Assembly: GCF_036417845.1 (NCBI RefSeq)
Contig: NC_090015.1
Location: forward strand, 1-64,000
Reading direction: 5' to 3'
From: Apteryx mantelli
Taxonomy: Eukaryota
DNA: 64,000 bases
The position numbers were made by a program, and so were the translations under genes. Shown here piece after piece: positions 19,301 to 55,900 of the stretch (its first letter is position 1; each line of letters begins with the position of its first letter). Below the pieces are notes generated by a model. The model was not told the origin of the DNA, searched no databases, and saw nothing but the letters and a program-made list of their open reading frames with translations.

Positions 19301-19303
19301 CAG

Positions 19304-23444: not shown

Positions 23445-23575
23445 GGGACGCCGTTGGGGACACGGGGGACGCGGCGGGGCGGCGGCGCAACCGCACGCGG
23501 GCCGTCACCTTCCGCGTGCCCCACAACGCCGCCATGCAGCTCTACGACTACCGGGAGCGGCAGGCGCGGTGAGCG
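23445..23575 (+). other. Second copy of the exon-8 3' end plus donor, carrying two substitutions (D>N and R>Q)
   Basis: Same 125-nt block with cgcaaccgc and cggcaggcgcgg variants. The donor gtgagc lies at 23569. Confidence 0.85.
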
Positions 23576-27300: not shown

Positions 27301-28160
27301 GGGTGCGTGTGACCTGCGTGTGGGCCCGTGTGACCCCCGTGGGCGCGTGTAACACACGTGTGGGTGCGTGTGGGTGCGTGTGACCCATGTGTGGGTGCGT
27401 GTGACCGGCGCGTGGGTGCGTGTGGGTGCGTGTGACGTGGGTGTGGGTGCGTGTGGGTGCATGTGACATGCATGTGGGTGCGCGTGACCCCCGTGGGGTG
27501 ACCCCCGTGTCCCCCCCACCCACGCAAGGTGGTGCTGGGCCCCGAGCTGGCGCTGCTGGCGCCCGGCGAGCAGCCCACGGCGCCGTCCCTCTCCGGGGTG
27601 GGACGCGTGTGACCCCCGTGGGGACCCGCGTGGGTGCGTGTGACCCCCGTGGGGTGACCCCCGTGTCCCCCCCACCCACGCAGGGTGGTGCTGGGCCCCG
27701 AGCTGGCGCTGCTGGCGCCCGGCGAGCAGCCCACGGTGCTGTCCCTCTCCGGGGGGGGACGCGTGTGACCCCCGCGTGGGTGCGTGTGGGTGCGTGTGAC
27801 CCCCGTGGGGATGCGTGTGACCCCCGTGGGGTGACCCCCGTGTCCCCCGTGTCCCCACGCAGGGTGGTGCTGGGCCCCGAGCTGGCGCTGCTGGCGCCCG
27901 GCGAGCAGCCCACGGCGCCGTCCCTCTCCGGGGTGGGACACGTGTGACCCCCGTGGGGACCCGCGTGGGTGCGTGTGACCCCCGTGGGGTGACCCCCGTG
28001 TCCCCCGTGTCCCCACGCAGGGTGGTGCTGGGCCCCGAGCTGGCGCTGCTGGCGCCCGGCGAGCAGCCCACGGCGCCGTCCCTCTCCGGGGGGGGACGCG
28101 TGTGACCCCCGCGTGGGTGCGTGTGACCCCCGTGGGGTGACCCCCGTGTCCCCCGTGTCC
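24400..28160. repeat. GT-rich repeat of 9-30-bp units (gtgtgggtgcgtgtgacccacgtgtgggtgcgtgtgac), carrying the exon-9 junction copies near its 3' end
   Basis: Direct reading. The alternating purine-pyrimidine GT/GC character is evident. Confidence 0.9.
26530..28100 (+). other. Five truncated copies of the exon-9 acceptor plus its 5' 80 nt, starting at 26556, 27529, 27684, 27863 and 28021; they lie upstream of the real exon at 28169
   Basis: The string ccccacgcag|ggtggtgctgggccccgagctggcgctgctggcgcccggcgagcagcccacgg(c/t)gc(c/t)gtccctctccgggg recurs, with each copy diverging after ctctccgggg. The second copy has caag in place of cag. Confidence 0.85.
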
Positions 28161-28168
28161 CCACGCAG

Positions 28169-28366
28169 GGTGGTGCTGGGCCCCGAGCTGGCGCTGCTGG
28201 CGCCCGGCGAGCAGCCCACGGTGCTGTCCCTCTCCGGGGGACGCCCCAAGCGTCCCCACGCCCGCCGCGCCCTCTGCCTGCTGCTGGGCCCCGACTTCTG
28301 CGCCGACCTCGTGGCCATCGAGACCGCCGACCACGCCCGCCTCCAGCTCCAGCTCGCCTACAACTG
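28169..28366 (+). CDS. MVP: MVP coding exon ([68 protein letters not shown]); AG 28167-28168, donor GT 28367-28368; phase 2 at both ends
   Basis: Almost identical to MVP '[66 protein letters not shown]'. It is the last and only complete copy in a series of five upstream truncated copies. Confidence 0.88.
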
Positions 28367-28369
28367 GTG

Positions 28370-37439: not shown

Positions 37440-38580
37440 TGCGTGCGGGGCGGGCGGGGGGCGGGGCTTGGCGGCGCGGGGGGCGGGGCTTGGCGGCGGG
37501 GGGGGCGACCGCGTGGCGGAGGGGGGGCGGGCAGGGTGGAGGGGGGGGGTGTCTGAGCGCGGCCACGCCCCCAGGGGGCGGGGCTGCCGCACGCGCAGGC
37601 GCGGTAGCCGCGGGGGGGGGGTGAAGGGGAGCGCGCAGGCGCAGTAGCCGCGGAAAGGGGGGGCGGCCAGGTGAGCGCGCAGGCGCAGTAGCCGCCGTGG
37701 GGGGGGCCGAGTGCGCAGGCGCGGTTGCCCGGGGGGGGGGCAAGGGGAGCGCGGAGGCGCAGTAGCCGCGGTGGGGGGGGGGGGGTTGAGTCGAGCGCGC
37801 AGGCGCAGAAGCCGCGGGGGGGGGGGGGTGAGGCGAGCGCGCAGGCGCAGTAGCGACGGTGGGGGGCGGCCAGAAGAGCGCGCAGGCGCAATAGCCGCGG
37901 GGGGGGGGGGTTGAGGGGAGCGCGCAGGCGCAGTAGCCACGTGGGGGGGGTTGAGGCGAGCGCGCAGGCGCAGTAGCCGCGGGGGGGTGGCAAGGGGAGC
38001 GCGCAGGCGCAGTAGCCGCGGTGGGGGGGGGGTTGAGTCGAGCGCGCAGGCGCAGAAGCCGCGGGGGGGGGGGTGAGGCGAGCGCGCAGGCGCAGTAGCG
38101 ACGGTGGGGGGGCGGCCAGAAGAGCGCGCAGGCGCAGTAGCCGCGGGGGGGGGGGGTTGAGGCGAGCGCGCAGGCGCAGTAGCCGCGGGGGGGGGGGGCA
38201 GGGCGGCAAGGGGAGCGCGCAGGCGCAGTAGCCACGTGGGGGGTTGAGGGGAGCGCGCAGGCGCAGTAGCCGGGGGGGTGAGGGGAGCGCGCAGGCGCAG
38301 TTGCCGCGGGGGGGGGGCTGAGGCGAGCACGCAGGCGCAGTAGCCGCGGAGGGGGGGGGGGGGGGGCGGCAAGGCGAGCGCGCAGGCGCAGTAGCTGCGG
38401 TGGGGGGGTGAGGCGAGCGCGCAGGCGCAGTAGCCGCGGGGGGGGGCTGAGGCGAGCGCGCAGGCGCAGTAGCCGCGGGGGGGGGGGAGAAGCGGCGGCC
38501 AGGGGAGAGCGCAGGCGCGGCAGGTTCGCCGGGCGCGGGGGGGGGGGGGGGAGGTGTCCCGCGGCGGGCGGGGCCGTGCC
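37440..38580. repeat. Tandem repeat of about 40-45-bp units (tgaggcgagcgcgcaggcgcagtagccgcg + G8-12) with a 240-bp higher-order period. The core GAGCGCGCAGGCGCAG matches the exon-14 5' region
   Basis: 37741-37980 equals 37981-38220. Every unit carries a G-run of 8-12 nt. Confidence 0.9.
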
Positions 38581-38612
38581 TGACGGCGGCCCCGCCCCCC
38601 CCCACCGCGCAG

Positions 38613-38802
38613 GAGGCGGAGCTGGCGCGGCTGGAGCGCGCGCAGGCGCAGGAGCTGCGGGTGCGGCGGGCGCGGGCGGAGGCGGAGGCGGCGCACGCGC
38701 AGGCCATGGCCGAGGTGGAGGGGGGGGCGCGTGCGCGACGTGGCCGCCGCCCTCGGCCCTGACGTCATCCGCGACATCGCGCGCGCCGGGCCCGAGCTCC
38801 AG
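38613..38802 (+). CDS. MVP: MVP coding exon (EAELARLERAQAQELRVRRARAEAEAAHAQAMAEVEGG[fs]RVRDVAAALGPDVIRDIARAGPELQ); AG 38611-38612, donor GT 38803-38804. Apparent +1 frameshift in the G7 run at 38721-38727
   Basis: Matches MVP '[63 protein letters not shown]'. The upstream frame (phase from 38613) and the downstream frame (from 38731) differ by one nucleotide across a 7-G run. Confidence 0.7.
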
Positions 38803-38804
38803 GT

Positions 38805-39420
38805 GGGCGGGGCCTCTGCGCGTGCGCGGGGGGGGGAACCGCGCGGTGGGGGGGCGGGGCCTGCGCGGTGGGGGGCGGGGCCATGGGGGGGTTGCCCCGG
38901 GGGTGGGGTCGCGGGGGGGTTGGGGTCCCAATGGGGGAGGGGCCCCAAAGGTGGTGGGCGGGACCTGGAGGGGGCGGGGTCTCCGTGGGTGGGGGCGTGG
39001 CCCTGGCGGGGGTGGGCGGGCCAAGAAGGGGGGGTCTCCCCACAGGAGCAGGGTCCAAGTGGGCTGGGCGGGGCCTCGGTGGGGGCGGGGCCTGAAGGGG
39101 AGTGGGTGGAGCACGAAGGGGGCACCCAATGGGGGTGGGGCCTCGAGGGGGGTCCCCAGGGGAGTGGGCGGGGCCTCGAGGCAGAGGTGGGGCCCGATGG
39201 GGGCGGGGCCTCCAAGGAGAGTGGGGCCTTGAAGGGGAGGGGCTCCCTCTGAGGGGCGTGACTTCTACTTGGGGGCGGGGCCAGGGGCAGCTCGCTCTCC
39301 CCCAGGGAGGGCGGGGGAGGCCGCCGGGGCGGGAAAGAGGGGAGGGGCGTGGCCCGTGGCTGGTGGGTGTGGCCTGAGGGGTGTGGCCCGAGGAGGGGGC
39401 GTGGCCTGAGAGGGGGCGTG
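38805..39420. repeat. Degenerate GC-rich repeat (gggcggggcctcgaggg / ggggcgtggcc) in MVP intron 14
   Basis: Direct reading. Confidence 0.6.
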
Positions 39421-39428
39421 TCCCACAG

Positions 39429-39566
39429 GTGAAGCTGCTGCAGGGCCTGGGGCTGCAGTCGACGCTCATCACCGACGGCGCCGCCCCCCTCAACCTCTTC
39501 GCCACCGCCCGGGGGCTCCTGGGGCTGGCCCCGCCCCCCGACCCCGCCCCCGGACACGCCCCCTGA
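39429..39566 (+). CDS. MVP: MVP terminal coding exon ([45 protein letters not shown]); AG 39427-39428; stop TGA 39564-39566
   Basis: Matches MVP C-terminus '[43 protein letters not shown]'. The frame matches ORF 39381..39566. Confidence 0.9.
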
Positions 39567-39596
39567 GCCCCCCGGGCTCCGCCCCCCCCGCTCGCC

Positions 39597-39602
39597 AATA
39601 AA
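39597..39602 (+). terminator. MVP: AATAAA polyadenylation signal of MVP (3'UTR about 39567-39620)
   Basis: Canonical aataaa lies 31 nt after the stop codon, followed by a GT-rich stretch (ggcagtgatgatgtcgtgg). Confidence 0.7.
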
Positions 39603-40150
39603 GGCGGCCCTTGGCAGTGATGATGTCGTGGCGGTGATGTCAGCGGTGGGGGCGGGGCACTGGGGGCGGGGTGTCACAGGATTGGGGGCTGGGCACTGTG
39701 ACGTCATCAAGGCGGGGCTGCTGCTGGCTGTGATGTCACAGCTCTGGGAGCGTGGCGACCAATGAGGTCGGGGCGGCGCACCCGGGCGTGATGTCATCAG
39801 CTTTGGGGGGGAGGGGGCCGGGGTGTGATGTCATGGCCCCGGGGGGGGGGGCGTTGGGGGCCGTGATGTCATAGGGCCGGGGGAGGGGGCGGGGCTGCGA
39901 TGTCGCAGGGCGGCGCCGGGGGCTGTGATGTCACCGGGCTGGGGCGTGACGTCACCAGGCTGCGGTGTGATGTCACCGGGGTGGGGGCGTGATGTCACCG
40001 GGCTGCGGTGTGATGTCACCGGGCTGGGACGCGACGTCGGGGTGGGGGGGGGGGGCAGCGCTGGGGGTCGTGATGTCACCAGGCTGCATGTGTGATGTCA
40101 CCGAGCTGGGGTGTGATGTCACCGAGCTGGGGCGTGATGTCACCAGGGTG
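39600..40150. repeat. Array of about 16 units of about 30-40 bp centred on GTGA(T/C)GTCA(C/T) (CRE-like TGACGTCA / TGATGTCA), in the convergent intergenic space
   Basis: gtgatgtcaccgggctgg, gcgtgacgtcaccaggctgcg and ctgtgacgtcatcaaggcgg recur. Confidence 0.85.
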
Positions 40151-40232
40151 GGGGAGGGGGGGGGCGGTGCGGGGGTCCCCGGACACCTGGGCCCCCCCCC
40201 GAAAACAGGACGCGGCGGCTCCCGAAGGCTCC

Positions 40233-40238
40233 TTTAAT
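40233..40238 (-). terminator. TLCD3B: Putative ATTAAA poly(A) signal for TLCD3B (implied 3'UTR about 40215-42032, running through the 42-bp satellite)
   Basis: Plus-strand tttaat is the only hexamer-variant signal I found between the TLCD3B stop (42033) and the MVP 3' end. I found no tttatt or tttaat in 40400-42033. Confidence 0.4.
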
Positions 40239-40286
40239 ACTGAGGTTATTGCTGCTGCGCGGGGGCCCCCCCCGGGGGGGGGGACG

Positions 40287-40312
40287 GACGGACGGACGGA
40301 CGGACCCAGGTG
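40287..40312. repeat. (GGAC)6 tetranucleotide microsatellite
   Basis: ggacggacggacggacggacggac. Confidence 0.9.
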
Positions 40313-40399
40313 TCCCCGGAGCCCCCCGGGGGGGCTGCTACTGTCCCGGGGGCACCCAAGGGTGCTCCTGGGGGGGGGGAGGGGCGTCACCGCCACCTG

Positions 40400-41900
40400 G
40401 GGAGCCGGGGGGGGGGGCTGCTACGGTCCTGGGGACAACCAAGGAGGGGGGGGGGCTGGGTGTCCTGGGGGCACCCATGGGTGCTCCTGGGGGGGGTCCC
40501 CACCCCTAGGATGGGTGCTGGACACCCTGAAGACATCTAAGGTGGCTTCTAGGGGGTGGTCACCACCCCTAGGACACCCCGGGGTGGGTGCTGGACACCC
40601 TGAAGACATCTAAGGTGGCTTCTGGGGGGTGGTCACCACCACTAGGACACCCTGGGGTGGGTGCTGGGTGCCCTAGGGGCACCCGTGGGGGCTCCTGGGA
40701 GATGGTCACCACCCCAGGACGCTACAAGGTGGGTCCTAAGTACGCTGGGGGCACCCAAGGGTGCTCCTGGGGGATGGGCAACATCTTGAGGGCGCCCAAG
40801 GGTGCTCGTAGGAGACGCCCACCACCCTGAGAACAAGCAGATGTGCTCCTGGGAGGCCCTGGAGACACCTAAAGGTGCTTCTAGGAGACGGCCACCACCC
40901 TGGTGACACCCAAGGGTGCTCCTAGGAGACGACCACCACCCTGAGAACACCCAAAAGTGCTTCTAGGAGATGACTACCACCCTCGTGACACCCAAGGGTG
41001 CTCCTAGAAGATGGCCACCACCTTGAGAACACCCAAGGGTGCTCCCGGGAGATGGTCTTCACCCTTGTGACACCCAAGGGTGCTCCTAGAAGATGGCCAC
41101 CACCCTGAGGACACCCAAGGGTGCTCCTAGGAGATGGCCACCACCTTGAGAACACCCAAGGGTGCTCCCAGGAGACAACCACCACCCTGGTGACACCCAA
41201 GGGTGCTCCTAAAAGATGGCCACCACCCTGAGGACACCCAAGGGCGCTCCCAGGAGATGGCCACCACTCTGAGAACACCCAAGGGTGCTCCCAGGAGATG
41301 GCCACCACCCTGGTGACACCCAACAGTGCTCCTATGAGACGACCACCACCCTGGTGACACCCAAGGGTGCTCCTAAAAGATGGCCACCACCCTGATGACA
41401 CCCAGAGGAGCTCCTAGAAGATGGCCACCACCCTGAGAACACCCAAAAGTGCTTCTAGGAGATGACCACCACCCTGGTGACACCCCAGGGTGCTCCTATG
41501 AGATAACCACCACTCTGGTGACACCCCAGGGTGCTCCTAAGAGACGACCACCACCCTGGTGACACCCCAGGGTGCTCCTATGAGATAACTACCACTCTGG
41601 TGACACCCAAGGGTGCTCCTAGGAGATGGCCACCACTCTGGTGACACCCAAGGGTGCTCCTAAGAGACAACCACCACCCTGGTGACACCCCAGGGTGCTC
41701 CTAGGAGATGGCCACCACTCTGGTGACACCCAAGGGTGCTCCTAGGAGATGGCCACCACTCTGGTGACACCCAAGGGTGCTCCTAAGAGACAACCATCAC
41801 CCTGGTGACACCCAAGGGTGCTCCTAGGAGATGGCCACCACTCTGGTGACACCCAAGGGTGCTCCTATGAGATACCCACCACCCTGGTGACACCCCCATG
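40400..41900. repeat. Satellite of about 42-bp units (gtgacacccaagggtgctcctaggagatggccaccaccctg) repeated about 35 times, within the presumed TLCD3B 3'UTR
   Basis: Direct reading. Confidence 0.9.
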
Positions 41901-42032
41901 GCGGGTCCTGGTCACCCCAGACACCCCCCCCCCCTCCCCCAAACCAGGGCTACACCCCCCCCACCCCCACCCCACCCACACCCCACCTCGCACCCCGACG
42001 GGCGCCGCAGCACCCCGGGGTGCCGGGCGGCA

Positions 42033-42293
42033 TCAGGGAGGCGCCGGTGGGCGGAAGAGGCGCCAGGCGCCGCGGCAGATGAGGCCGAACCAGTAGAGCT
42101 GGGGGGCGAGGAGGGCGGCGGCGGCAGCGTTGTAGGCAGCAGGCAGCGCCGCCGGCACCCGCAGCAGCGGCAGCCCCGCGTGGCGCCCGTAGGCCCAGTA
42201 CAGGTAAGGGAAGAGCAGCACCCGGCACCCGAAGAAGGTCACCAGCATGGCCAAGCCGTTGAGCTTGTGCAGCGCCGTGTGTTGCCGCTTGTA
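42033..42293 (-). CDS. TLCD3B: TLCD3B (FAM57B) terminal coding exon ([86 protein letters not shown])
   Basis: Minus-strand translation aligns to the TLC-domain protein FAM57B/TLCD3B C-terminus '...[48 protein letters not shown]...[21 protein letters not shown]'. The minus-strand acceptor cag lies at plus 42294-42296. The frame matches ORF 42033..42317(-). Confidence 0.85.
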   Translation of the reverse strand, partial: [86 protein letters not shown]

Positions 42294-42339
42294 CTGCCGG
42301 GTGAAGAGGGGGGACAACGGGGGACGCGGTCAGCGCGTA

Positions 42340-42900
42340 GGGGGTGGCCGGGGTCACCTCTATGGTCTCCCGAGGGATCCTGGTGGCCGGGGACCCTGGT
42401 TCACCCCTATGTTCTCCTGAGGGACCCGGGTGTCTGGTGGCCCCGATCCATCCCTACGTCCTCCTGAGGGACCCAGGTGTCCGGGGATCCTGGTGTCTGG
42501 TGGCCCCGATCCATCCCTACGTCCTCCCGAGGGACCCAGGTGTCCGGGGACCCTGGTTCACCCCTATGTTCTCCTGAGGAACCCGGGTGTCTGGTGGCCC
42601 CGATCCATCCCTACGTCCTCCCGAGGGACCCAGGTGGCCGGGGATCCTGGTTCACCCCTATGTTCTCCTGAGGAACCCGGGTGTCTGGTGGCCCCGATCC
42701 ATCCCTACGTCCTCCTGAGGGACCCAGGTGGCCAGGGACCCTGGTTCACCCCTATGTTCTCCTGAGGGACCCGGGTGTCTGGTGGCCCCGATCCATCCCT
42801 ACGTCCTCCCGAGGGACCCAGGTGGCCGGAGACCCAAGTGACCAGTGGCCCCGATCCACCCCACGTCTTCCCAAGGGACCCAGGCGTCCGGGCCCCACCC
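42340..42900. repeat. Tandem repeat of about 46/92-bp units (ctggtggccccgatccatccctacgtcctcctgagggacccaggtgtccgg…ggttcacccctatgttctcctgag), in the last TLCD3B intron
   Basis: ORFs 42344.., 42430.. and 42477.. share peptides. Confidence 0.85.
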
Positions 42901-42936
42901 CGCCCTCCCCCCGAGGGGCCCAGGCGTCCGGCTCAC

Positions 42937-43032
42937 CAGGATGAGCACCTTGCCGAGGCAGACGAAGGGGGTGCTCAGCTCCGCCATGAGGAGGCAGCCC
43001 AAGAAGAAGTCGCCCTTGCCCTGGCGCCACAG
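42937..43032 (-). CDS. TLCD3B: TLCD3B coding exon ([32 protein letters not shown]); 96 bp, phase 0 at both ends; minus-strand donor gtgagc
   Basis: Aligns to FAM57B '[32 protein letters not shown]'. It is flanked by cag|ctg on the acceptor side and ctg|gtgagc on the donor side on the minus strand. Confidence 0.8.
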
Positions 43033-43039
43033 CTGGGGA

Positions 43040-43760
43040 CACGAGGGGGGACACGGGGGGACACGGGGGGGGACACGGGTCACACGGGGGGGGGACACGG
43101 ACACAGGTCACAAGGGGGAACAGGAGGACATGGGTCACATGACGTGGAGGACACCACCAGGACGTGGGGTGGCCTACCCGGGTTGCCCCCATCCCCACGG
43201 TGTCCCCAAGGTGTCCCCAACCCCCTCCCAACTCACGGAGGCCACAGGGAAGCAGAGCAGCACCGTGGTGGCCACCTCCTTGCCATGGTGGTGGCCTCCC
43301 ATCCCGTGTTCCCCAAGAGGTTCCTCCATCCCCGAGCCATCTCTGTCCCCATGGTGTCCCCAGCTGCTGTCCCCACTCGATGGGGAAGCAGACGAGGACC
43401 ATGGTGGCCACCACGAGCCCATCCTCGCCGACGTGGTGGCCACCCATCCCGTGTCTCCAAGAGGTTCCTCCGTCTCCAAGCCATGCTGGTGCCCCCAGGG
43501 TGTCCCCAACCCCCGTCCCCACTCATGGTGACCACGAGGACGCAGACGAGCACCACGGTGGCCACCACGAGAACGTCCCCGCCGAGGTGGTGGCCCCCCA
43601 ACGCCACGTCCCCAAGAAGGTTCCTCCGCCCCCCCCAAGCCCCGTCCCCACGGGGAAGCAGACGAGCACCACGGCGGCCACCACGAGACCATCCCCGCCA
43701 CGGTGGTGGCCCTCCATGCCACGTCCCCAAGAAGGTTCCTCCATCCCCGTCCCCTACTCA
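43040..43760. repeat. Tandem repeat of about 130-150-bp units derived from the TLCD3B exon end and donor
   Basis: See the TLCD3B copy feature above. Recurrent strings are gaagcagacgagcaccacgg(c/t)ggccaccacgag. Confidence 0.75.
43225..43700 (-). other. Four degenerate copies of the TLCD3B exon 3' end plus donor (…LVCFPVAA|gtgagt), in the adjacent intron at plus 43225-43290, 43355-43420, 43510-43580 and 43625-43700
   Basis: Minus-strand strings such as ctgctctgcttccctgtggcctccgtgagttgg, ctgcgtcctcgtggtcaccatgagtgggg and ctcgtctgcttccccgtggggacgg recur at a period of about 130-150 bp. Confidence 0.7.
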
Positions 43761-43761
43761 C

Positions 43762-43981
43762 GGCGGCCACGGGGAAGCAGACGAGCACCATGGCGGCGTG
43801 GTGGAGCACCATGAGCAGGTCCTTGCGGAGGTAGGCGGCGGCGGCGGCCCGCAGCGACGGCGGTGGCCCGGCCTCGTGGCCCTTGACGCGTCCCCGGTGC
43901 CAGTGGCAGAGGAACATGGCGTAGACGTCGTAGACGAAGTAGGGCACCGCGAACTCCGGGTAGGCGCCCGCCAGCCAGTGC
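43762..43981 (-). CDS. TLCD3B: TLCD3B coding exon (g-HWLAGAYPEFAVPYFVYDVYAMFLCHWHRGRVKGHEAGPPPSLRAAAAAYLRKDLLMVLHHAAMVLVCFPVAA); minus-strand donor gtgagt. The 5' (acceptor) boundary is uncertain
   Basis: Aligns to FAM57B 'QHWLSSAYTQFAVPYFIYDIYAMFLCHWH...YLHKEFLMVLHHAAMVLVCFP'. The conserved HH motif of the TLC domain is present. The open frame continues upstream into the 58-bp satellite, so I inferred the acceptor at 'acag|g' (plus 43981-43983). Confidence 0.65.
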
Positions 43982-43989
43982 CTGTCCCC

Positions 43990-46900
43990 AAAAATGACGT
44001 CAGGGGACCCAGGCGTCCGGGAGGGACCCAGGCGTCCGGGCAGGGACCCGGGTGTCCAGGGGACCCGGGTGTTTGGTGGCCTCGTGGCCACCATCTCCCC
44101 TGGTTTCACTCTACATCTGGGTCATCTTCAAGGGACCCAGGCGTCCGGGGAGACTCGTGTCACCTCTAGAGGGACCAGGCGTCCGGGAGGGGCCCAGGCG
44201 TCCGGGGAGTCTCGCGTCACCTCTAGGGGGACCCGGGCGTCCGGGAGGGGCCCAGGCGTCCGGGGAGTCTCGCGTCACCTCTAGGGGGACCCGGGCGTCC
44301 GGGAGGGGCCCAGGCGTCCGGGGAGCCTCGCGTCACCTCTAGGGGACCCGGGCGTCCGGGAGGGGCCCAGGCGTCCGGGGAGTCTCGCGTCACCTCTAGG
44401 GGGACCCGGGCGTCCGGGAGGGGCCCAGGCGTCCGGGGAGTCTCGCGTCACCTCCAGGGGGACCCGGGCGTCCGGGAGGGGCCCAGGCGTCCGGGGAGCC
44501 TCGCATCACCTCTAGGGGGACCCGGGCGTCCGGGAGGGGCCCAGGCGTCCGGGGAGTCTCGCGTCACCTCTAGAGGGACCCGGGCGTCCGGGAGGGGCCC
44601 AGGCGTCCGGGGAGTCTCGCGTCACCTCTAGAGGGACCCGGGCGTCCGGGAGGGGCCCAGGCGTCCGGGGAGTCTCGCGTCACCTCTAGGGGCACCCGGG
44701 CGTCCGGGAGGGGCCCAGGCGTCCGGGGAGTCTCGCGTCACCTCTAGGGGGACCCGGGCGTCCGGGAGGGGCCCAGGCGTCCGGGGAGTCTCGCGTCGCC
44801 TCTAGGGGGACCCGGGCGTCCGGGAGGGGCCCAGGCGTCCGGGGAGTCTCGCGTCACCTCTAGGGGGACCCGGGCGTCCGGGAGGGGCCCAGGCGTCCGG
44901 GGAGTCTCGCGTCACCTCTAGGGGGACCCGGGCGTCCGGGAGGGGCCCAGGCGTCCGGGGAGTCTCGCGTCACCTCTAGGGGGACCCGGGCGTGCTGGAG
45001 GGGCCCAGGCGTCCGGGGAGTCTCGCGTCGCCTCTAGGGGGACCCGGGCGTCCGGGAGGGGCCCAGGCGTCCGGGGAGTCTCGCGTCGCCTCTAGGGGGA
45101 CCCGGGCGTCCGGGAGGGGCCCAGGCGTCCGGGGAGCCTCGCGTCACCTCTAGGGGGACCCGGGCGTCCGGGAGGGGCCCAGGCGTCCGGGGAGCCTCGT
45201 GTCACCTCTAGGGGGGCCCGGGCGTCCGGGAGGGGCCCAGGCGTCCGGGGAGTCTCGCGTCACCTCTAGGGGGACCCGGGCGTCCGGGAGGGGCCCAGGC
45301 GTCCGGGGAGTCTCCTGTCACCTCTAGGGGCACCCGGGCGTCCGGGAGGGGCCCAGGCGTCCGGGGAGTCTCGCGTCACCTCTAGGGGACCCGGGCGTGC
45401 GGGAGGGGCCCAGGCGTCCGGGGAGTCTCGCGTCACCTCTAGGGGGACCCGGGCGTCCGGGAGGGGCCCAGGCGTCCGGGGAGCCTCGCGTCACCTCTAG
45501 GGGGACCCGGGCGTCCGGGAGGGGCCCAGGCGTCCGGGGAGTCTCGCGTCACCTCTAGAGGGACCCGGGCGTCCGGGAGGGGCCCAGGCGTCCGGGGAGC
45601 CTCGCGTCACCTCTAGAGGGACCCGGGCGTCCGGGAGGGGCCCAGGCGTCCGGGGAGTCTCGCGTCACCTCTAGGGGGACCCGGGCGTCCGGGAGGGGCC
45701 CAGGCGTCCGGGGAGTCTCGCGTCACCTCTAGGGGGACCCGGGCGTCCGGGAGGGGCCCAGGCGTCCGGGGAGTCTCGCGTCGCCTCTAGGGGGACCCGG
45801 GCGTCCGGGAGGGGCCCAGGCGTCCGGGGAGTCTCGCGTCACCTCTAGGGGGACCCGGGCGTCCGGGAGGGGCCCAGGCGTCCGGGGAGTCTCGCGTCAC
45901 CTCTAGGAGACCCGGGCGTCCGGGAGGGGCCCAGGCGTCCGGGGAGTCTCGCGTCACCTCTAGGGGGACCCGGGCGTCCGGGAGGGGCCCAGGCGTCCGA
46001 GGAGTCTGGCGTCACCTCTAGGGGGACCCGGGCGTCCGGGAGGGGCCCAGGCGTCCGGGGAGTCTCGCGTCACCTCTAGGGGGACCCGGGCGTCCGGGAG
46101 GGGCCCAGGCGTCCGGGGAGTCTCGCGTCACCTCTAGGGGGACCCGGGCGTCCGGGAGGGGCCCAGGCGTCCGGGGAGTCTCGCGTCACCTCTAGGGGGA
46201 CCCGGGCGTCCGGGAGGGGCCCAGGCGTCCGGGGAGTCTCGCGTCACCTCTAGAGGGACCCAGGTGTCCGGGAGGGGCCCAGGCGTCCGGGGAGTCTCGC
46301 GTCGCCTCTAGGGGGACCCGGGCGTCCGGGAGGGGCCCAGGCGTCCGGGGAGTCTCGCGTCACCTCTAGGGGGACCCGGGCGTCCGGGAGGGGCCCAGGC
46401 GTCCGAGGAGTCTGGCGTCACCTCTAGGGGGACCCGGGCGTCCGGGAGGGGCCCAGGCGTCCGGGGAGTCTCGCGTCACCTCTAGGGGGACCCGGGCGTC
46501 CGGGAGGGGCCCAGGCGTCCGGGGAGTCTCGCGTCACCTCTAGGAGACCCGGGCGTCCGGGAGGGGCCCAGGCGTCCGGGGAGTCTCGCGTCACCTCTAG
46601 AGGGACCCAGGCGTGCGGGAGGGGCCCAGGCGTCCGGGGAGTCTCGCGTCACCTCTAGAGGGACCCAGGCGTGCGGGAGGGGCCCAGGCGTCCGGGGAGT
46701 CTCGCGTCACCTCTAGGGGGACCCGGGCGTCCGGGAGGGGCCCAGGCGTCCGGGGAGTCTCGCGTCACCTCTAGGGGGACCCAGGTGTCCGAGAGGGGCC
46801 CAGGCGTCCGGGGAGTCTCGCGTCACCTTTACGGGGACCCAGGAGTCCGGGAGGGGCCCAGGCGTCCGGGGAGTCTCGCGTCGCCTCTAGGGGGACCCGG

Positions 46901-49900
46901 GTGTCCGGGAGGGGCCCAGGCGTCCGGGGAGGGGCCCAGGCGTCCGGGGAGTCTCGCGTCACCTCTAGGGGGACCCGGGCGTCCGGGAGGGGCCCAGGCG
47001 TCCGGGGAGTCTCGCGTCACCTCTAGGGGACCCGGGCGTCCGGGAGGGGCCCAGGCGTCTGGGGAGCCTCGTGTCACCTCTAGAGGGGCCCAGGCGTCCG
47101 GGGAGTCTGGCGTCACCTCTAGGGGGACCCGGGCGTCCGGGAGGGGCCCAGGCGTCTGGGGAGCCTCGTGTCACCTCTAGAGGGGCCCAGGCGTCCGGGG
47201 AGTCTGGCGTCACCTCTAGGGGGACCCGGGCGTCCGGGAGGGGCCCAGGCGTCTGGGGAGCCTCGTGTCACCTCTAGAGGGGCCCAGGCGTCCGGGGAGT
47301 CTGGCGTCACCTCTAGGGGGACCCGGGCGTCCGGGAGGGGCCCAGGCGTCCGGGGGGTCTCGCGTCACCTCTAGAGGGGCCCAGGCGTCCGGGGAGTCTG
47401 GCGTCACCTCTAGGGGGACCCGGGCGTCCGGGAGGGGCCCAGGCGTCTGGGGAGCCTCGTGTCACCTCTAGAGGGGCCCAGGCGTCCGGGGAGTCTCGCG
47501 TCACCTCTAGAGGGACCCGGGCGTCCGGGAGGGGCCCAGGCGTCCGGGGAGCCTCGCGTCACCTCTAGGGGGACCCGGGCGTGCGGGAGGGGCCCAGGCG
47601 TCCGGGGAGTCTCGTGTCACCTCTAGGGGGACCCAAGTGTCCGGGAGGGGCCCAGGCGTCCGGGGAGTCTCGCGTCACCTCTAGGGGGACCCGGGCGTGC
47701 GGGAGGGGCCCAGGCGTCCGGGGAGTCTCGCGTCACCTCTAGGGGGACCCGGGCGTGCGGGAGGGGCCCAGGCGTCCGGGGAGTCTCGTGTCACCTCTAG
47801 GGGGACCCGGGCGTCCGGGAGGGGCCCAGGCGTCCGGGGAGTCTCGCGTCACCTCTAGAGGGACCCGGGCGTCCGGGAGGGGCCCAGGCGTCCGGGGAGT
47901 CTCGTGTCACCTCTAGGGGGACCCGGGCGTCCGGGAGGGGCCCAGGCGTCCGGGGAGTCTCGCGTCACCTCTAGGGGGACCCGGGCGTCCGGGAGGGGCC
48001 CAGGCGTCCGGGGAGCCTCGCGTCACCTCTAGGGGGACCCGGGCGTCCGGGAGGGGCCCAGGCGTCCGGGGAGTCTCGCGTCACCTCTAGGGGGACCCGG
48101 GCGTCCGGGAGGGGCCCAGGCGTCCGGGGAGTCTCGCGTCACCTCTGGGGGGACCCGGGCGTCCGGGAGGGGCCCAGGCGTCCGGGGAGTCTCGCGTCAC
48201 CTCTAGAGGGGCCCAGGCGTCCGGGGAGTCTCGCGTCACCTCTGGGGGGACCCGGGCGTCCGGGAGGGGCCCAGGCGTCCGGGGAGTCTCGCGTCACCTC
48301 TAGGGGGACCCGGGCGTCCGGGAGGGGCCCAGGCGTCCGGGGAGCCTCGCGTCACCTCTAGGGGGACCCGGGCGTCCGGGAGGGGCCCAGGCGTCCGGGG
48401 AGTCTCGCGTCACCTCTAGGGGGACCCAGGCGTCCGGGAGGGGCCCAGGCGTCCGGGGAGTCTCGCGTCACCTCTAGGGGGACCCGGGCGTCCGGGAGGG
48501 GCCCAGGCGTCCGGGGAGTCTCGCGTCACCTCTAGGGGGACCCGGGCGTCCGGGAGGGGCCCAGGCGTCAGGGGAGTCTGGCGTCACCTCTAGGGGGACC
48601 CGGGCGTCCGCGAGGGGCCCAGGCGTCCGGGGAGCCTCGCGTCACCTCTAGGGGGACCCGGGCGTCCGGGAGGGGCCCAGGCGTCCGGGGAGTCTCGCGT
48701 CACCTCTAGGGGGACCCGGGCGTCCGGGAGGGGCCCAGGCGTCCGGGGAGTCTCGCGTCGCCTCTACGGGGACCCGGGCGTCCGGGAGGGGCCCAGGCGT
48801 CCGGGGAGTCTCGCGTCACCTCTAGAGGGACCCGGGCGTCCGGGAGGGGCCCAGGCGTCCGGGGAGTCTCGCGTCACCTCTAGGGGGACCCGGGCGTCCG
48901 GGAGGGGCCCAGGCGTCCGGGGAGCCTCGCGTCACCTCTAGGGGGACCCGGGCGTCCGGGAGGGGCCCAGGCGTCCGGGGAGTCTCGCGTCACCTCTAGG
49001 GGGACCCGGGCGTCCGGGAGGGGCCCAGGCGTCCGGGGAGTCTCGCGTCACCTCTAGGGGGACCCGGGCGTCCGGGAGGGGCCCAGGCGTCCGGGGAGCC
49101 TCGCGTCGCCTCTAGGGGGACCCGGGCGTCCGGGAGGGGCCCAGGCGTCCGGGGAGTCTCGCGTCACCTCTAGAGGGACCCGGGCGTCCGCGAGGGGCCC
49201 AGGCGTCCGGGGAGTCTCGCGTCGCCTCTAGGGGACCCGGGCGTCCGGGAGGGGCCCAGGCGTCCGGGGAGCCTCGCGTCACCTCTAGGGGGACCCGGGC
49301 GTCCGGGAGGGGCCCAGGCGTCCGGGGAGTCTCGCGTCACCTCTAGGGGGACCCGGGCGTCCGGGAGGGGCCCAGGCGTCCGGGGAGTCTCGCGTCACCT
49401 CTAGGGGGGCCCAGGCGTCCGGGGAGTCTCGCGTCACCTCTAGGGGGACCCGGGCGTCCGGGAGGGGCCCAGGCGTCCGGGGAGTCTCGCGTCACCTCTA
49501 GGGGGGCCCAGGCGTCCGGGGAGTCTCGCGTCACCTCTAGGGGGACCCGGGCGTCCGGGAGGGGCCCAGGCGTCCGGGGAGTCTCGCGTCACCTCTAGGG
49601 GGACCCAGGTTTCCGGGAGGGGCCCAGGCGTCCGGGGAGTCTCGCGTCACCTCTAGGGGGACCCGGGCGTCCGGGAGGGGCCCAGGCGTCCGGGGCATCT
49701 CGCGTCACCTCTAGGGGGACCCGGGCGTGCGGGAGGGGCCCAGGCGTCCGGGGAGTCTCGCGTCACCTCTAGGGGGACCCGGGCGTCCGGGAGGGGCCCA
49801 GGCGTCCGGGGAGTCTCGCGTCACCTCTAGGGGACCCGGGCGTCCGGGAGGGGCCCAGGCGTCCGGGGAGCCTCGCGTCACCTCTAGGGGGGCCCGGGCG

Positions 49901-52900
49901 TCCGGGAGGGGCCCAGGCGTCCGGGGAGTCTCGCGTCACCTCTAGGGGGACCCGGGCGTCCGGGAGGGGCCCAGGCGTCCGGGGAGTCTCGCGTCACCTC
50001 TAGGGGGACCCGGGCGTCCGGGAGGGGCCCAGGCGTCCGGGGAGTCTCGCGTCACCTCTGGGGGGACCCGGGCGTGCGGGAGGGGCCCAGGCGTCCGGGG
50101 AGTCTCGCGTCACCTCTAGGGGGACCCGGGCGTCCGGGAGGGGCCCAGGCGTCCGGGGAGTCTCGCGTCACCTCTAGGGGGACCCGGGCGTCCGAGGGGG
50201 GCCCAGGCGTCCGGGGAGTCTCGCGTCACCTCTAGGGGGACCCGGGCGTCCGGGAGGGGCCCAGGCGTCCGGGGAGCCTCGCGTCACCTCTAGGGGGACC
50301 CGGGCGTCCGGGAGGGGCCCAGGCGTCCGGGGAGTCTCGCGTCACCTCTAGGGGGACCCGGGCGTCCGGGAGGGGCCCAGGCGTCCGGGGAGCCTCGCGT
50401 CACCTCTAGGGGGACCCGGGCGTCCGGGAGGGGCCCAGGCGTCCGGGGAGTCTCGCGTCACCTCTAGGGGGACCCGGGCGTCCGGGAGGGGCCCAGGCGT
50501 CCGGGGAGCCTCGCGTCACCTCTAGAGGGGCCAGGCGTCCGCGGAGTCTCGCGTCACCTCTAGGGGACCCAGGTGTCCGGGGAGTCTCGTGTCATCTCTA
50601 GGGGACCCAGGTGTCCGGGGAGTCTCGTGTCACCTCTAGGGGGACCCGGGCGTCCGGGAGGGGCCCAGGCGTCCGCGGAGTCTCGCGTCACCTCTAGGGG
50701 ACCCAGGTGTCCGGGGAGTCTCGTGTCATCTCTAGGGGACCCAGGTGTCCGGGGAGTCTCGCGTCACCTCTAGGGGGACCCGGGCGTCCGGGAGGGGCCC
50801 AGGCGTCCGGGGAGTCTCGCGTCATCTCTAGGGGACCCAGGTGTCCGGGGAGTCTCGTGTCACCTCTAGGGGGACCCGGGCGTCCGGGAGGGGCCCAGGC
50901 GTCCGGGGAGTCTCGCGTCACCTCTAGAGGGACCAGGTGTCCGTGAGGGGCCCAGGTGTCCGGGAGGGGCCCAGGCGTCCGGGGAGCCTCGCGTCACCTC
51001 TAGGGGGACCCGGGCGTCCGGGAGGGGCCCAGGCGTCCGGGGAGTCTCGCGTCACCTCTAGAGGGACCCGGGCGTCCGGGAGGGGCCCAGGCGTCCGGGG
51101 AGTCTCGCGTCACCTCTAGGGGGACCCGGGCGTCCGGGAGGGGCCCAGGCGTCCGGGGAGTCTCGCGTCACCTCTAGGGGGACCCGGGCGTCCGGGAGGG
51201 GCCCAGGCGTCCGGGGAGTCTGGCGTCACCTCTACGGGGACCCGGGCGTCCGGGAGGGGCCCAGGCGTCCGGGGAGTCTCGCGTCACCTCTAGAGGGACC
51301 CGGGCGTCCGGGAGGGGCCCAGGCGTCCGGGGAGTCTCGCGTCACCTCTAGGGGGACCCGGGCGTCCGCGAGGGGCCCAGGCGTCCGGGGAGCCTCGCGT
51401 CACCTCTAGGGGGACCCGGGCGTCCGGGAGGGGCCCAGGCGTCCGGGGAGTCTCGCGTCACCTCTAGGGGGACCCGGGCGTCCGGGAGGGGCCCAGGCGT
51501 CCGGGGAGTCTCGCGTCACCTCTAGGGGGACCCGGGCGTCCGGGAGGGGCCCAGGCGTCCGGGGAGTCTCGCGTCACCTCTAGGGGGACCCGGGCGTCCG
51601 GGAGGGGCCCAGGCGTCCGGGGAGTCTCGCGTCACCTCTAGGGGGACCCGGGCGTCCGGGAGGGGCCCAGGCGTCCGGGGAGCCTCGCGTCACCTCTAGG
51701 GGGGCCCGGGTGTCCGGGAGGGGCCCAGGCGTCCGGGGAGCCTCGCGTCACCTCTGAGGGGACCCGGGCGTGCGGGAGGGGCCCAGGCGTCCGGGGAGCC
51801 TCGCGTCACCTCTAGGGGGACCCGGGCGTCTGGGAGGGGCCCAGGCGTCCGGGGAGTCTCGCGTCACCTCTAGGGGGACCCGGGCGTCCGGGAGGGGCCC
51901 AGGCGTCCGGGGAGTCTCGCGTCACCTCTAGGGGGACCCGGGCGTCCGGGAGGGGCCCAGGCGTCCGGGGAGTCTCGCGTCACCTCTAGGGGGACCCGGG
52001 CGTCCGGGAGGGGCCCAGGCGTCCGGGGAGTCTTGCGTCACCTCTAGGGGGACCCGGGCGTCCGGGAGGGGCCCAGGCGTCCGGGGAGCCTCGCGTCGCC
52101 TCTAGGGGGACCCGGGCGTCCGGGAGGGGCCCAGGCGTCCGGGGAGCCTCGCGTCACCTCTAGGGGCACCCGGGCGTCCGGGAGGGGCCCAGGCGTCCGG
52201 GGAGTCTCGCGTCACCTCTAGAGGGACCCGGGCGTCCGCGAGGGGCCCAGGCGTCCGGGGAGTCTCGCGTCGCCTCTAGGGGACCCGGGCGTCCGGGAGG
52301 GGCCCAGGCGTCCGGGGAGTCTCGCGTCACCTCTAGGGGGACCCGGGCGTCCGGGAGGGGCCCAGGCGTCCGGGGAGTCTCGCGTCACCTCTAGGGGGGC
52401 CCAGGCGTCCGGGGAGTCTCGCGTCACCTCTAGGGGGACCCGGGCGTCCGGGAGGGGCCCAGGCGTCCGGGGAGTCTCCTGTCACCTCTAGGGGGACCCG
52501 GGCGTCCGGGAGGGGCCCAGGCGTCCGGGGAGTCTCGCGTCACCTCTAGGGGGACCCGGGCGTCCGGGAGGGGCCCAGGCGTCCGGGGAGTCTCGCGTCA
52601 CCTCTAGGGGGACCCGGGCGTCTGGGAGGGGCCCAGGCGTCCGGGGAGTCTCGCGTCACCTCTAGGGGGCCCAGGCGTCCGGGAGGGGCCCAGGCGTCCG
52701 GGGAGTCTCGCGTCACCTCTAGGGGGACCCGGGCGTCCGGGAGGGGCCCAGGCGTCCGGGGAGTCTCGCGTCACCTCTAGGGGGACCCGGGCGTCCGGGA
52801 GGGGCCCAGGCGTCCGGGGAGTCTCGCGTCACCTCTAGAGGGACCCGGGCGTCCGGGAGGGGCCCAGGCGTCCGGGCAGTCTCGCGTCACCTCTAGGGGG

Positions 52901-55900
52901 ACCCGGGCGTCCGGGAGGGGCCCAGGCGTCCGGGGAGTCTCGCGTCGCCTCTAGGGGGACCCGGGCGTCCGGGAGGGGCCCAGGCGTCCGGGGAGTCTCG
53001 CGTCACCTCTAAGGGGACCCGGGCGTCCGCGAGGGGCCCAGGTGTCCGGGGAGTCTCGCGTCACCTCTGGGGGGACCCGGGCGTCCGGGAGGGGCCCAGG
53101 CGTCCGGGGAGTCTCGCGTCACCTCTAGGGGGACCCGGGCGTCCGGGAGGGGCCCAGGCGTCCGGGGAGTCTCGCGTCACCTCTAGGGGGACCCGGGCGT
53201 CCGGGAGGGGCCCAGGCGTCCGGGGAGTCTCGCGTCACCTCTAGGGGGGCCCAGGCGTCCGGGGAGTCTCGCGTCACCTCTAGGGGGACCCGGGCGTCCG
53301 GGAGGGGCCCAGGCGTCCGGGGAGTCTCCTGTCACCTCTAGGGGGACCCAGGTTTCCGGGAGGGGCCCAGGCGTCCGGGGAGTCTCGCGTCACCTCTAGG
53401 GGGACCCGGGCGTCCGGGAGGGGCCCAGGCGTCCGGGGCATCTCGCGTCACCTCTAGGGGGACCCGGGCGTGCGGGAGGGGCCCAGGCGTCCGGGGAGTC
53501 TCGCGTCACCTCTAGGGGACCCGGGCGTCCGGGAGGGGCCCAGGCGTCCGGGGAGTCTCGCGTCACCTCTAGGGGGACCCGGGCGTGCGGGAGGGGCCCA
53601 GGCGTCCGGGGAGTCTCGCGTCACCTCTAGGGGGCCCAGGCGTCCGGGAGGGGCCCAGGCGTCCGGGGAGTCTCGCGTCACCTCTAGGGGGACCCGGGCG
53701 TCCGGGAGGGGCCCAGGCGTCCGGGGAGTCTCGCGTCACCTCTAGGGGGACCCGGGCGTCCGGGAGGGGCCCAGGCGTCCGGGGAGTCTCGCGTCACCTC
53801 TAGGGGACCCGGGCGTCCGGGAGGGGCCCAGGCGTCCGGGGAGTCTCGCGTCACCTCTAGGGGGACCCGGGCGTCCGGGAGGGGCCCAGGCGTCCGGGGA
53901 GTCTCGCGTCACCTCTAGGGGGGCCCGGGCGTCCGGGAGGGGCCCAGGCGTCCGGGGAGTCTCGCGTCACCTCTAGGGGACCCGGGCGTCTGGGAGGGGC
54001 CCAGGTGTCCGGGGAGGGGCCCAGGCGTCCGGGGAGTCTCGCGTCACCTCTAGGGGACCCGGGCGTCCGGGAGGGGCCCAGGCGTCCGGGGAGCCTCGCG
54101 TCACCTCTAGGGGGACCCGGGCGTCCGGGAGGGGCCCAGGCGTCCGGGGAGTCTCGCGTCACCTCTAGGGGGACCCGGGCGTCCGGGAGGGGCCCAGGCG
54201 TCCGGGGAGTCTCGCGTCACCTCTAGGGGGACCCGGGCGTCCGGGAGGGGCCCAGGCGTCCGGGGAGTCTCGCGTCACCTCTAGGGGGACCCGGGCGTCC
54301 GGGAGGGGCCCAGGCGTCCGGGGAGTCTCGCGTCACCTCTAGGGGGACCCGGGCGTCCGGGAGGGGCCCAGGCGTCCGGGGAGTCTCGCGTCACCTCCGG
54401 GGGGACCCGGGCGTGCGGGAGGGGCCCAGGCGTCCGGGGAGTCTCGCGTCACCTCTAGGGAGACCCGGGCGTCCGGGAGGGGCCCAGGCGTCCGGGGAGT
54501 CTCGCGTCACCTCTAGGGGGACCCGGGCGTCCGGGAGGGGCCCCAGGCGTCCGGGGAGTCTCGCGTCACCTCTGGGGGGACCCGGGCGTCCGGGAGGGGC
54601 CCAGGCGTCCGGGGAGTCTCGCGTCACCTCTAGGGGGACCCGGGCGTCCGGGAGGGGCCCAGGCGTCCGGGGAGTCTCGCGTCACCTCTAGGGGGACCCG
54701 GGCGTCCGGGAGGGGCCCAGGCGTCCGGGGAGTCTCGCGTCACCTCTAGGGGGACCCGGGCGTCCGGGAGGGGCCCAGGCGTCCGGGGAGCCTCGCGTCA
54801 CCTCTAGGGGACCCGGGCGTCCGGGAGGGGCCCAGGCGTCCGGGGAGTCTGGCGTCACCTCTAGGGGGACCCGGGCGTCCGGGAGGGGCCCAGGCGTCCG
54901 GGGAGTCTCGCGTCACCTCTAGGGGGACCCGGGCGTGCGGGAGGGGCCCAGGCGTCCGGGGAGTCTCGCGTCACCTCTAGGGGGACCCGGGCGTCCGGGA
55001 GGGGCCCAGGCGTCCGGGGAGTCTCGCGTCACCTCTAGGGGGACCCGGGCGTCCGCGAGGGGCCCAGGCGTCCGGGGAGTCTCGCGTCACCTCTAGGGGA
55101 CCCGGGCGTCCGGGAGGGGCCCAGGCGTCCGGGGAGTCTGGCGTCACCTCTAGGGGGACCCGGGCGTCCGGGAGGGGCCCAGGCGTCCGGGGAGTCTCGC
55201 GTCACCTCTAGGGGGACCCGGGCGTCCGGGAGGGGCCCAGGCGTCCGGGGAGTCTCGCGTCACCTCTAGGGGGACCTAGGAGTCCGGGAGGGGCCCAGGC
55301 GTCCGGGGAGTCTCCTGTCACCTCTAGGGGGACCCGGGCGTCCGGGAGGGGCCCAGGCGTCCGGGCAGTCTCGCGTCACCTCTAGGGGGACCCGGGCGTC
55401 CGGGAGGGGCCCAGGCGTCCGGGGAGCCTCGCGTCACCTCTAGGGGGACCCGGGCGTGCGGGAGGGGCCCAGGCGTCCGGGGAGCCTCGCGTCACCTCTA
55501 GAGGGACCCGGGCGTCCGGGAGGGGCCCAGGCGTCCGGGGAGCCTCGCGTCACCTCTAGGGGACCCGGGCGTGCGGGAGGGGCCCAGGCGTCCGGGGAGT
55601 CTCGCGTCACCTCTAGGGGGACCCGGGCGTCCGGGAGGGGCCCAGGCGTCCGGGAGGGGCCCAGGCGTCCGGGGAGCCTCGCGGTCACCTCTAGGGGGAC
55701 CCGGGCGTCCGGGAGGGGCCCAGGCGTCCGGGGAGCCTCGCGTCACCTCTAGGGGGACCCGGGCGTCCGGGAGGGGCCCAGGCGTCCGGGGAGTCTCGCG
55801 TCACCTCTAGGGGGACCCGGGCGTCCGGGAGGGGCCCAGGCGTCCGGGGAGTCTCGCGTCACCTCTAGGGGGACCCGGGCGTCCGGGAGGGGCCCAGGCG

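Follow-up and report, generated by a model that had tools for sequence, protein, structure and literature searches.

An array of CRE-like motifs between the convergent MVP and TLCD3B genes of Apteryx as a probable expansion of a site conserved in the TLCD3B 3' flank of birds

In a 64,000-nucleotide stretch of DNA from Apteryx mantelli (NC_090015.1, positions 1 to 64,000; the window from here on), the 630-bp gap across which the poly(A) signals of MVP and TLCD3B face each other holds an array of 17-19 copies of GTGA(T/C)GTCAC. This array is probably a lineage-specific tandem expansion of a conserved CREB/ATF-type cAMP response element (CRE) in the TLCD3B 3' flank. The seed of the expansion would be a (C)GTGAC(G/A)TCAC site that birds carry 55-97 nt past the poly(A) signal of TLCD3B, and its ancestral form may have been the canonical TGACGTCA, kept in chicken, swan and budgerigar and in two copies here. 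A sequence-only reading of the same DNA had proposed that the copies could form a plain minisatellite, a cluster of basic leucine zipper (bZIP) sites, or a transcription-termination or insulator element between convergent genes.

The evidence that carries this reading comes from a comparison with the TLCD3B loci of eight species, namely chicken, swan, falcon, crane, budgerigar, garden warbler, cuckoo and turtle; tinamou was left out at the 3' end because its contig stops before the poly(A) site. The hexamer ATTAAA closes the TLCD3B 3' untranslated region (UTR) in all eight species and appears in the extended form ATTAAAGGA in six of them. An exact CRE octamer follows 55-97 nt downstream of this hexamer in six of eight birds, the Apteryx window included. 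The distances from ATTAAA are as follows:

Chicken: 77 and 97 nt, both canonical, plus a one-mismatch TGACGCCA at 64 nt
Swan: 56, 72, 89, 109 and 129 nt
Falcon: 65 nt
Crane: 82 nt
Budgerigar: 55 and 76 nt
Apteryx window: 15 sites at 96-596 nt

Alignment places ATTAAAGGA, a G-run and then the CRE in the same order in six birds, the G-run being 7-24 bases long in the falcon, crane, budgerigar and swan orthologs. When all 8-mers within 150 nt past ATTAAA are counted without bias, TGACATCA and GACATCAC come out on top (five of seven birds), and TGACGTCA is found in three. By chance, 100 nt would hold about 0.005 octamers of this family, and mean column identity over the alignment as a whole is only 46%. 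The CREs of different species differ almost solely by replacement of CG with TG or CA. The octamer is thus conserved at this position in one to five copies, which argues that it is not merely the content of a random repeat unit, and the conserved seed probably has a regulatory role. Taking the window as kiwi, the site would be older than the palaeognath-neognath split.

The gene that lies beyond TLCD3B differs among these loci. In the window and in turtle it is the convergent 3' end of MVP, in swan the 5' end of KIF22 on the same strand as TLCD3B, and in budgerigar the same-strand pair VKORC1-BCKDK, with the 5' end of VKORC1 coming next. The CRE stays with the TLCD3B 3' end regardless of which gene follows. 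Either chromosomal breakpoints are clustered just past the CRE, or GC-rich regions are misassembled or incomplete in some of the assemblies. The repeat unit has a local origin, with one copy in falcon and crane, two to five in budgerigar, chicken and swan, and no dispersed family within the window. Swan, falcon, crane and cuckoo have an array of 'cccagtacaaactgg' past the CRE, and the window lacks it.

Within the window, the array consists of two halves with different spacing:

39616 to 39916, plus strand: MVP-side half, about nine CRE-like cores with G-rich spacers and a canonical TGACGTCA at 39699-39706
39917 to 40160, plus strand: TLCD3B-side half, ten 21-22-bp units with the consensus GGGGCGTGATGTCACCGGGCT, a canonical TGACGTCA at 39947-39954 and a G5AG5 element at 40150

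The motif GTGAYGTCAC has ten exact sites against 0.45 expected in the whole window, a count reached in none of 100 shuffles. The octamer TGAYGTCA occurs 15 times between 39635 and 40142, where about 0.02 sites would be expected; two of these are canonical TGACGTCA and 13 are the variant TGATGTCA, in which the central CG is replaced by TG. The extended palindrome GTGACGTCAC is also present. With up to one mismatch, 15 copies of the ten-base motif are found, with up to two mismatches 17, and two three-mismatch copies stand in register at 39616 and 40031, so the earlier estimate of about 16 copies was a fair one. Of the two perfect palindromes that it listed, the one at 39947 is where it was placed, while the other lies 40 bp from the position of 39739 given for it, at 39699 (39731 carries TGATGTCA). 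Outside the array, TGAYGTCA is found at only three positions of the window: the isolated site at 13777 and two exonic sites. The latter are the only canonical TGACGTCA beyond the array, one in an MVP exon (38760-38767) and one in a TLCD3B exon (43995-44002), and because both encode Pro-Asp-Val-Ile they are regarded as codon coincidences rather than as members of the array.

The core-to-core spacing of 30-40 bp that had been assumed applies, at 28-38 bp, to the MVP-side half (39634-39925), with intervals of 58 and 60 bp at decayed copies, but not to the TLCD3B-side half (39925-40143), where it is 21-22 bp. A single 36-bp tandem repeat does not exist. Tandem Repeats Finder (TRF) reports a period of 21 bp with 11.2 copies and higher-order periods of 64 and 103 bp on the TLCD3B side, and within the MVP-side half only the interval 39807-39911, with a period of 34 bp and three copies. 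Segment 39603-39806 is covered by no TRF repeat and nevertheless contains four octamers against 0.003 expected; this segment and the conservation across species are the only two respects in which the motif is enriched beyond what a tandem repeat trivially supplies. The MVP-side spacers hold GC boxes (39649, 39663 and 39886), a CCAAT box (39759) and G5AG5 elements (39807 and 39879).

In the phase-locked 21-bp units, non-majority bases make up 5 of 100 positions in the ten-base core and 31 of 110 in the spacers (Fisher p = 6e-6), and this lower variability of the core is suggestive of constraint. Spacers of the two halves resemble each other at 67-82% over 30-38 nt (direct-repeat families D1-D6), which indicates that all copies of the array descend from duplication. 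All 13 TG-variants read TGATGTCA on the plus strand and none reads TGACATCA. Since independent decay of CpG in each copy would have given a mixture of both, the unit that was amplified had most likely decayed already.

The surroundings of the array are almost wholly repetitive. The window has a GC content of 0.70 (0.78 around the gap), and TRF arrays cover 89% of it, in 25 blocks that each measure 200 bp or more; the islands free of repeats correspond for the most part to the exons of MVP and TLCD3B. An array between the two genes therefore needs no special explanation, and its high copy number has a trivial cause. In kind it is ordinary, namely a stuttered minisatellite in a stuttering-prone bird region. 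On chicken dot chromosomes, "sequence stuttering" has been described as the expansion of locally unique sequence, including the edges of exons, into imperfect tandem copies, with intergenic DNA also affected (PMC12954441; further context in PMC9974502). In the window, arrays fill the introns of MVP, and some stretches of its exons have been multiplied as well. Instability driven by hairpins or cruciforms at the palindromic cores was also considered and is ruled out, as the DNA fold of 39917-40160 shows no excess structure relative to shuffled sequences (z = -0.89). An Rfam scan of 38500-42500 returned no family; the only signal, a MIR1882 match in the 41-bp array of the TLCD3B 3' UTR, scored 29 bits and stayed below the gathering score of 107.

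Several exons illustrate the multiplication. Part of the MVP exon at about 19480-19570 (within 19301-19570) is copied at 20993-21076 and 23486-23569, inside a (GGGGACATT)n intron array. The start of the MVP exon at 28167-28367 is copied at 27682-27756 and 28019-28093 and occurs at least three times in an array with a 156-bp period (4.8 copies by TRF), of which the last copy alone runs on into the rest of the exon. A repeat with a 116-bp period in a TLCD3B intron (43511-43797; open reading frames 42752-43522 and 43174-44109, minus strand) echoes the end of the upstream exon, with MVLVCFP-like peptides recurring, and suggests that TLCD3B may be exon-stuttered as well. Directly upstream of the first TLCD3B exon found, a 58-bp satellite (AGGGGCCCAGGCGTCCGGGGAGTCTCGCGTCACCTCTAGGGGGACCCGGGCGTCCGGG) with higher-order variants of 97, 116, 135 and 174 bp occupies 44131-64000, a length of at least 19.9 kb, and reaches the last base of the window. 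The window does not include the TLCD3B exon that encodes the first ~64 residues, and the satellite stretch is probably a giant satellite-filled intron of this gene. The kiwi gene model P0182 (Apteryx mantelli LOC106495222, "uncharacterized protein") matches window positions 44094-43211 in its non-coding parts too, including peptides of the 58-bp satellite, and its shared exon is identical by eye at 73 of 74 residues. This model appears to be a mis-prediction that reads from the satellite through the TLCD3B exon into the intron.

The identity of the two genes and of their 3' ends is supported by the following features:

39429 to 39566, plus strand: last coding exon of MVP, from the tblastn map, with stop codon TGA at 39564-39566 and homologs named major vault protein
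39597 to 39602, plus strand: MVP poly(A) signal AATAAA, 31 nt past the stop codon
40191 to 40212, minus strand: U-rich and G-run downstream element of the TLCD3B poly(A) site, read on the minus strand as cctgttttcggggggggg
40238 to 40233, minus strand: TLCD3B poly(A) signal ATTAAA (the plus strand reads TTTAAT), the sole poly(A)-type hexamer on its strand between 39600 and 42040
40239 to 42032, minus strand: inferred TLCD3B 3' UTR of about 1.8 kb, containing a 73-bp array (40512-40777) and a 41-bp array of 28 copies (40745-41895), both from TRF
42033 to 42296, minus strand: last coding exon of TLCD3B, with a Pfam TLC domain and stop codon TGA at 42035-42033

The MVP exons, which extend from 910 to 39566 on the plus strand, were mapped by tblastn with a human MVP probe, and the map was accepted only after confirmation by Pfam. 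Nine translated exons (plus strand, 910 to 33475) match Vault, Vault_2, Vault_3, Vault_4 and MVP_shoulder, and the C-terminal exons retrieve proteins named major vault protein in a protein similarity search. For TLCD3B, the minus-strand exons 44001-43723, 43032-42928 and 42293-42054 contain a TLC domain (Pfam E = 1e-25) and share 75-89% identity with TLCD3B/FAM57B of birds and reptiles. When 14 variants of the poly(A) hexamer were searched for, the plus strand had no second hexamer between 39560 and 40300 besides the AATAAA at 39597, and the minus strand had none other than ATTAAA between 39600 and 42040. A GU-rich stretch at 39612-39650 follows the MVP signal and overlaps the first degenerate motif copies. 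In turtle, MVP is likewise convergent with TLCD3B, and an AATAAA follows the MVP coding sequence at a distance of no more than about 30 nt. The sequence-only reading had set the two 3' ends face to face, and the convergent arrangement is supported together with both putative poly(A) signals. The comparison offers sequence-based support for the poly(A) sites of both genes, which are poorly represented in bird assemblies. On the MVP side, the protein database gave no close bird MVP, the best full-length match being a frog protein with 57% identity, and the locus comparison covered turtle only, which has no CRE there.

The TLCD3B 3' UTR itself varies widely, from 0.23 kb in falcon to 7.7 kb in chicken between stop codon and ATTAAA, and its repeat units differ in sequence from species to species. 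Repeat-filled 3' UTRs of 1.2-7.7 kb are found in most of the other species examined. The minisatellite stretches lie at 40512-41895 in the window and, in the comparison loci, at 12160-13540 in L001 (Cygnus), 14230-15340 in L003 and 15800-23480 in L004 (Gallus). In garden warbler, units of the GAGTGACC type form a long array past the 3' end, among them the one-mismatch forms TGATGTCT, TGACGTCT and TGACATCT.

It is plausible that the array arose in the following way. The amplified unit may have been one in which the central CpG had been deaminated to TpG, and it would have expanded by replication slippage or unequal exchange, as in the stuttering of GC-rich avian dot-type chromosomes. The high copy number would then be mainly a neutral by-product of regional instability, while the seed would be a bZIP site (CREB/ATF1/ATF2-Jun) retained by selection. 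Such a seed would most likely be a small regulatory module of the CpG-island type at the TLCD3B 3' end, and its candidate roles are that of a 3' regulatory element for TLCD3B or of a promoter-like element for a neighbouring or antisense transcript. If unmethylated, the array would present two sites of high strength and about 13 of lower strength, the latter being TG-variants.

Strong CREB binding requires an intact and unmethylated central CpG. This CpG is gone from 13 of the 15 octamers and is intact only in the remaining two and in the decayed unit at 40031, which reads GCGACGTCGG. Its loss implies that the site is methylated in the germline and binds CREB more weakly, and it counts against the expansion of a selected CRE, as do several further points. 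Cuckoo has no CRE after ATTAAA and warbler has one-mismatch derivatives only, so the element would be dispensable in some birds, and the TLCD3B 3' flank of turtle has no CRE either. Several of the comparison assemblies are fragmentary here, which makes orthology of the far flank uncertain. The low variability of the core could equally reflect spacers with mutable CpG and G-runs, or homogenisation of the units, instead of selection. The argument for a function of the seed is one from conservation. Finally, the array sits between two 3' ends and not at a known transcription start site, and CREs typically act within about 150 bp upstream of such a site (PMC1796609).

An alternative possibility is that the array is a purely neutral minisatellite whose near-palindromic unit resembles a CRE by chance and has no function, the sharing among birds being slowly decaying inheritance beside a conserved poly(A) site. 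In a window made up of tandem arrays to this extent, such an array is the default state, and the relatedness of all copies by duplication, the CpG-decayed variant in most of them and the species in which the site is absent or degenerate all fit, as does the partial alignability of the sequence that separates ATTAAA from the CRE. As an account of the copy number, the minisatellite proposed earlier is right, given the shared flanks and the density of arrays. What a neutral origin explains poorly is that an octamer so rarely expected has been kept at 55-97 nt from ATTAAA in six lineages that span palaeognaths, Galloanserae and Neoaves, and that it is the most shared 8-mer in a flank of such low identity. 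The species differences by CG to TG/CA are, moreover, of the pattern reported for functional CREs (PMC1796609), and the core varies less than the spacer within the array. A wholly neutral array is considered rather unlikely. The expansion of a conserved CRE also retains part of the proposed bZIP cluster: the amplified seed is a conserved CRE-type octamer, present in one to five copies in other birds, and the idea of a cluster is judged to be only partly right.

Two further explanations assign a function to the gap as a whole. In one of them it would be an unannotated CpG-island promoter, made up of CRE, GC-box and CCAAT elements, whose product is a non-coding RNA, either antisense or intergenic, and which forms part of the KIF22 or VKORC1 promoter in neognaths. 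The ratio of observed to expected CpG is 0.73 in the gap and 0.57 for the window, GC boxes and the CCAAT box at 39759 stand among the cores, and both the CRE and its TG-variant are characteristically promoter-proximal (PMC1796609). Promoter-like sequence lies 0.1-1.1 kb beyond the site in three birds, namely budgerigar, chicken and swan. The stretch that separates the two budgerigar CREs contains ccATTGG, and GACCAATGAG recurs in the array of warbler. Both sides of the array in the window are 3' ends, however, and the VKORC1 promoter of budgerigar carries distinct CREs, at a distance of a further 370 bp. A conserved module of CRE and CCAAT was considered, as the two occur near each other in the window, budgerigar, swan, crane and warbler, but it was rejected as not robust, because the crane ATTGG belongs to the unit of the next array and falcon and chicken have none. 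A promoter in the gap is accordingly judged unlikely.

In the other, G-rich spacers, perhaps together with bZIP roadblocks, would slow RNA polymerase II past the MVP poly(A) site and thus prevent collision with, or read-through into, TLCD3B. The GC skew of +0.36 across 39603-40232 and the presence of several G4-type runs are in line with this, and three of the five G5AG5 elements of the window (39807, 39879 and 40150) lie here, all on the plus strand and 210-550 nt past the MVP AATAAA. In most birds the ATTAAA of TLCD3B, too, has a G-run behind it, and G-rich/MAZ elements past poly(A) sites are documented pause or termination elements between close genes (PMC3145960, PMC8972054), even though a specific role of the MAZ motif in termination has been questioned (PMC8972054). 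The three G5AG5 elements cannot be counted as independent, since they are copies of one repeat unit (families D3 and D5), and G-runs are common throughout a window of 70% GC. The strand bias would help MVP only and not TLCD3B, and the conserved element is the CRE and not G5AG5, even where the neighbour of TLCD3B is a promoter instead of a convergent 3' end. A pause or termination zone is judged unlikely. Insulation through CTCF is rejected because a regular-expression scan for its core motif (CCASYAGRKGGCR) gave no match on either strand of the whole window. The termination or insulator element suggested from the sequence consequently finds no specific support in the CRE motif, and what speaks for it is limited to generic G-rich runs and the G5AG5 elements of the spacers.

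Two other arrays were observed near the TLCD3B 3' end in neognaths. In budgerigar (Melopsittacus undulatus, L008 19340-19465), the VKORC1 promoter has three tandem 42-bp units, each with GGTGACGTCAC, directly ahead of the ATG; two CCAAT boxes stand in front of these units, which are a second example of a tandemly multiplied CRE. An array of ~36-bp units, GTTGCYAGGCAACCGCCGCCATYTTGT, which combine an RFX X-box-like palindrome with a YY1-like GCCGCCATCTTG, was found only in swan and chicken. It has at least 17 copies in chicken (L004, 23640 to beyond 24400) and two to four in swan (L001, 14620-14790), where it lies directly upstream of the KIF22 start, the KIF22 promoter having NRF1-like, CCAAT and cell cycle genes homology region (CHR)-like elements. 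When the swan KIF22 region was compared with the remaining loci by blastn, nothing but simple-repeat matches came up.

Taken by itself, the array is one more tandem repeat in an almost wholly repetitive region, and its existence requires no special function. Close behind the poly(A) signal of TLCD3B, a CRE-type site is conserved across crown birds despite differing neighbours, and it would be a previously unremarked regulatory candidate. The locus also provides a natural series of 0, 1, 2, 5 and about 18 copies of one transcription-factor site at an orthologous position, with which it could be tested whether stuttering is regulatory or neutral. It may even be that stuttering on dot-type chromosomes recurrently turns single conserved transcription-factor sites into homotypic clusters with cores under selection, an idea that we offer as speculation and consider unlikely. 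The copy numbers of the TLCD3B CRE, from about 18 in the kiwi-like window through five in swan, two to three in chicken and two in budgerigar to degenerate forms in warbler, would fit such a process and may reflect independent expansions. The 3 x 42-bp GGTGACGTCAC units of budgerigar VKORC1 and the RFX-like/YY1-like units (at least 17 in chicken, two to four in swan) would fit it as well. If true, stuttering would be a fast and lineage-specific means of tuning regulatory strength at gene ends and promoters.

Among known systems, the array resembles the ~21-bp Tax-responsive repeats in the long terminal repeats (LTRs) of the human T-cell and bovine leukemia viruses HTLV-1 and BLV, which also have a CRE-like core with G/C-rich flanks and form a homotypic bZIP cluster (PMC509288, PMC506788). 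In these viruses, however, three dispersed repeats stand in a retroviral promoter, whereas the array has 17-19 head-to-tail copies and no LTR context; no open reading frame or RNA-family match was found in it, retroviral features not having been sought beyond that, and the likeness is one of resemblance only. With the G-rich/MAZ pause elements between C2 and Factor B (PMC3145960, PMC8972054) it shares G5AG5 and G-runs on the sense strand, 200-550 nt past the MVP poly(A) signal, within a 630-bp gap. It differs from them in that the genes are convergent and not tandem, the G5AG5 elements are passengers of a repeat unit, and the conserved part is the CRE.

The octamers themselves, two TGACGTCA and 13 TGATGTCA, are those of CREs recognised by CREB, ATF1 and ATF2-Jun. 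The form TGATGTCA is the deamination or "TG" variant, which is bound with lower affinity and yet still functions, and which replaces TGACGTCA at orthologous sites more often than any other sequence does (PMC1796609). In the promoters of E-selectin and JUN, TGACATCA/GTGACATCAT serves as the site for ATF2/c-Jun (PMC4973847, PMC11108773). The changes among birds parallel those among orthologous mammalian CREs, in which CG is likewise replaced by TG or CA (PMC1796609). Unlike a typical CRE, the bird site lies downstream of a poly(A) signal and most copies in the array lack the central CpG. The array as a whole also has a parallel in avian stuttering (PMC12954441), with which it shares imperfect tandem multiplication, a GC-rich and repeat-dense region, copy number that varies among species, and stuttered MVP exons nearby. 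That process was described for chicken introns and exon edges, with intergenic DNA only in passing, whereas here the genome is that of a palaeognath, and the expansion would have started from a conserved transcription-factor site, located in intergenic sequence past a gene's 3' end, that several lineages have multiplied.

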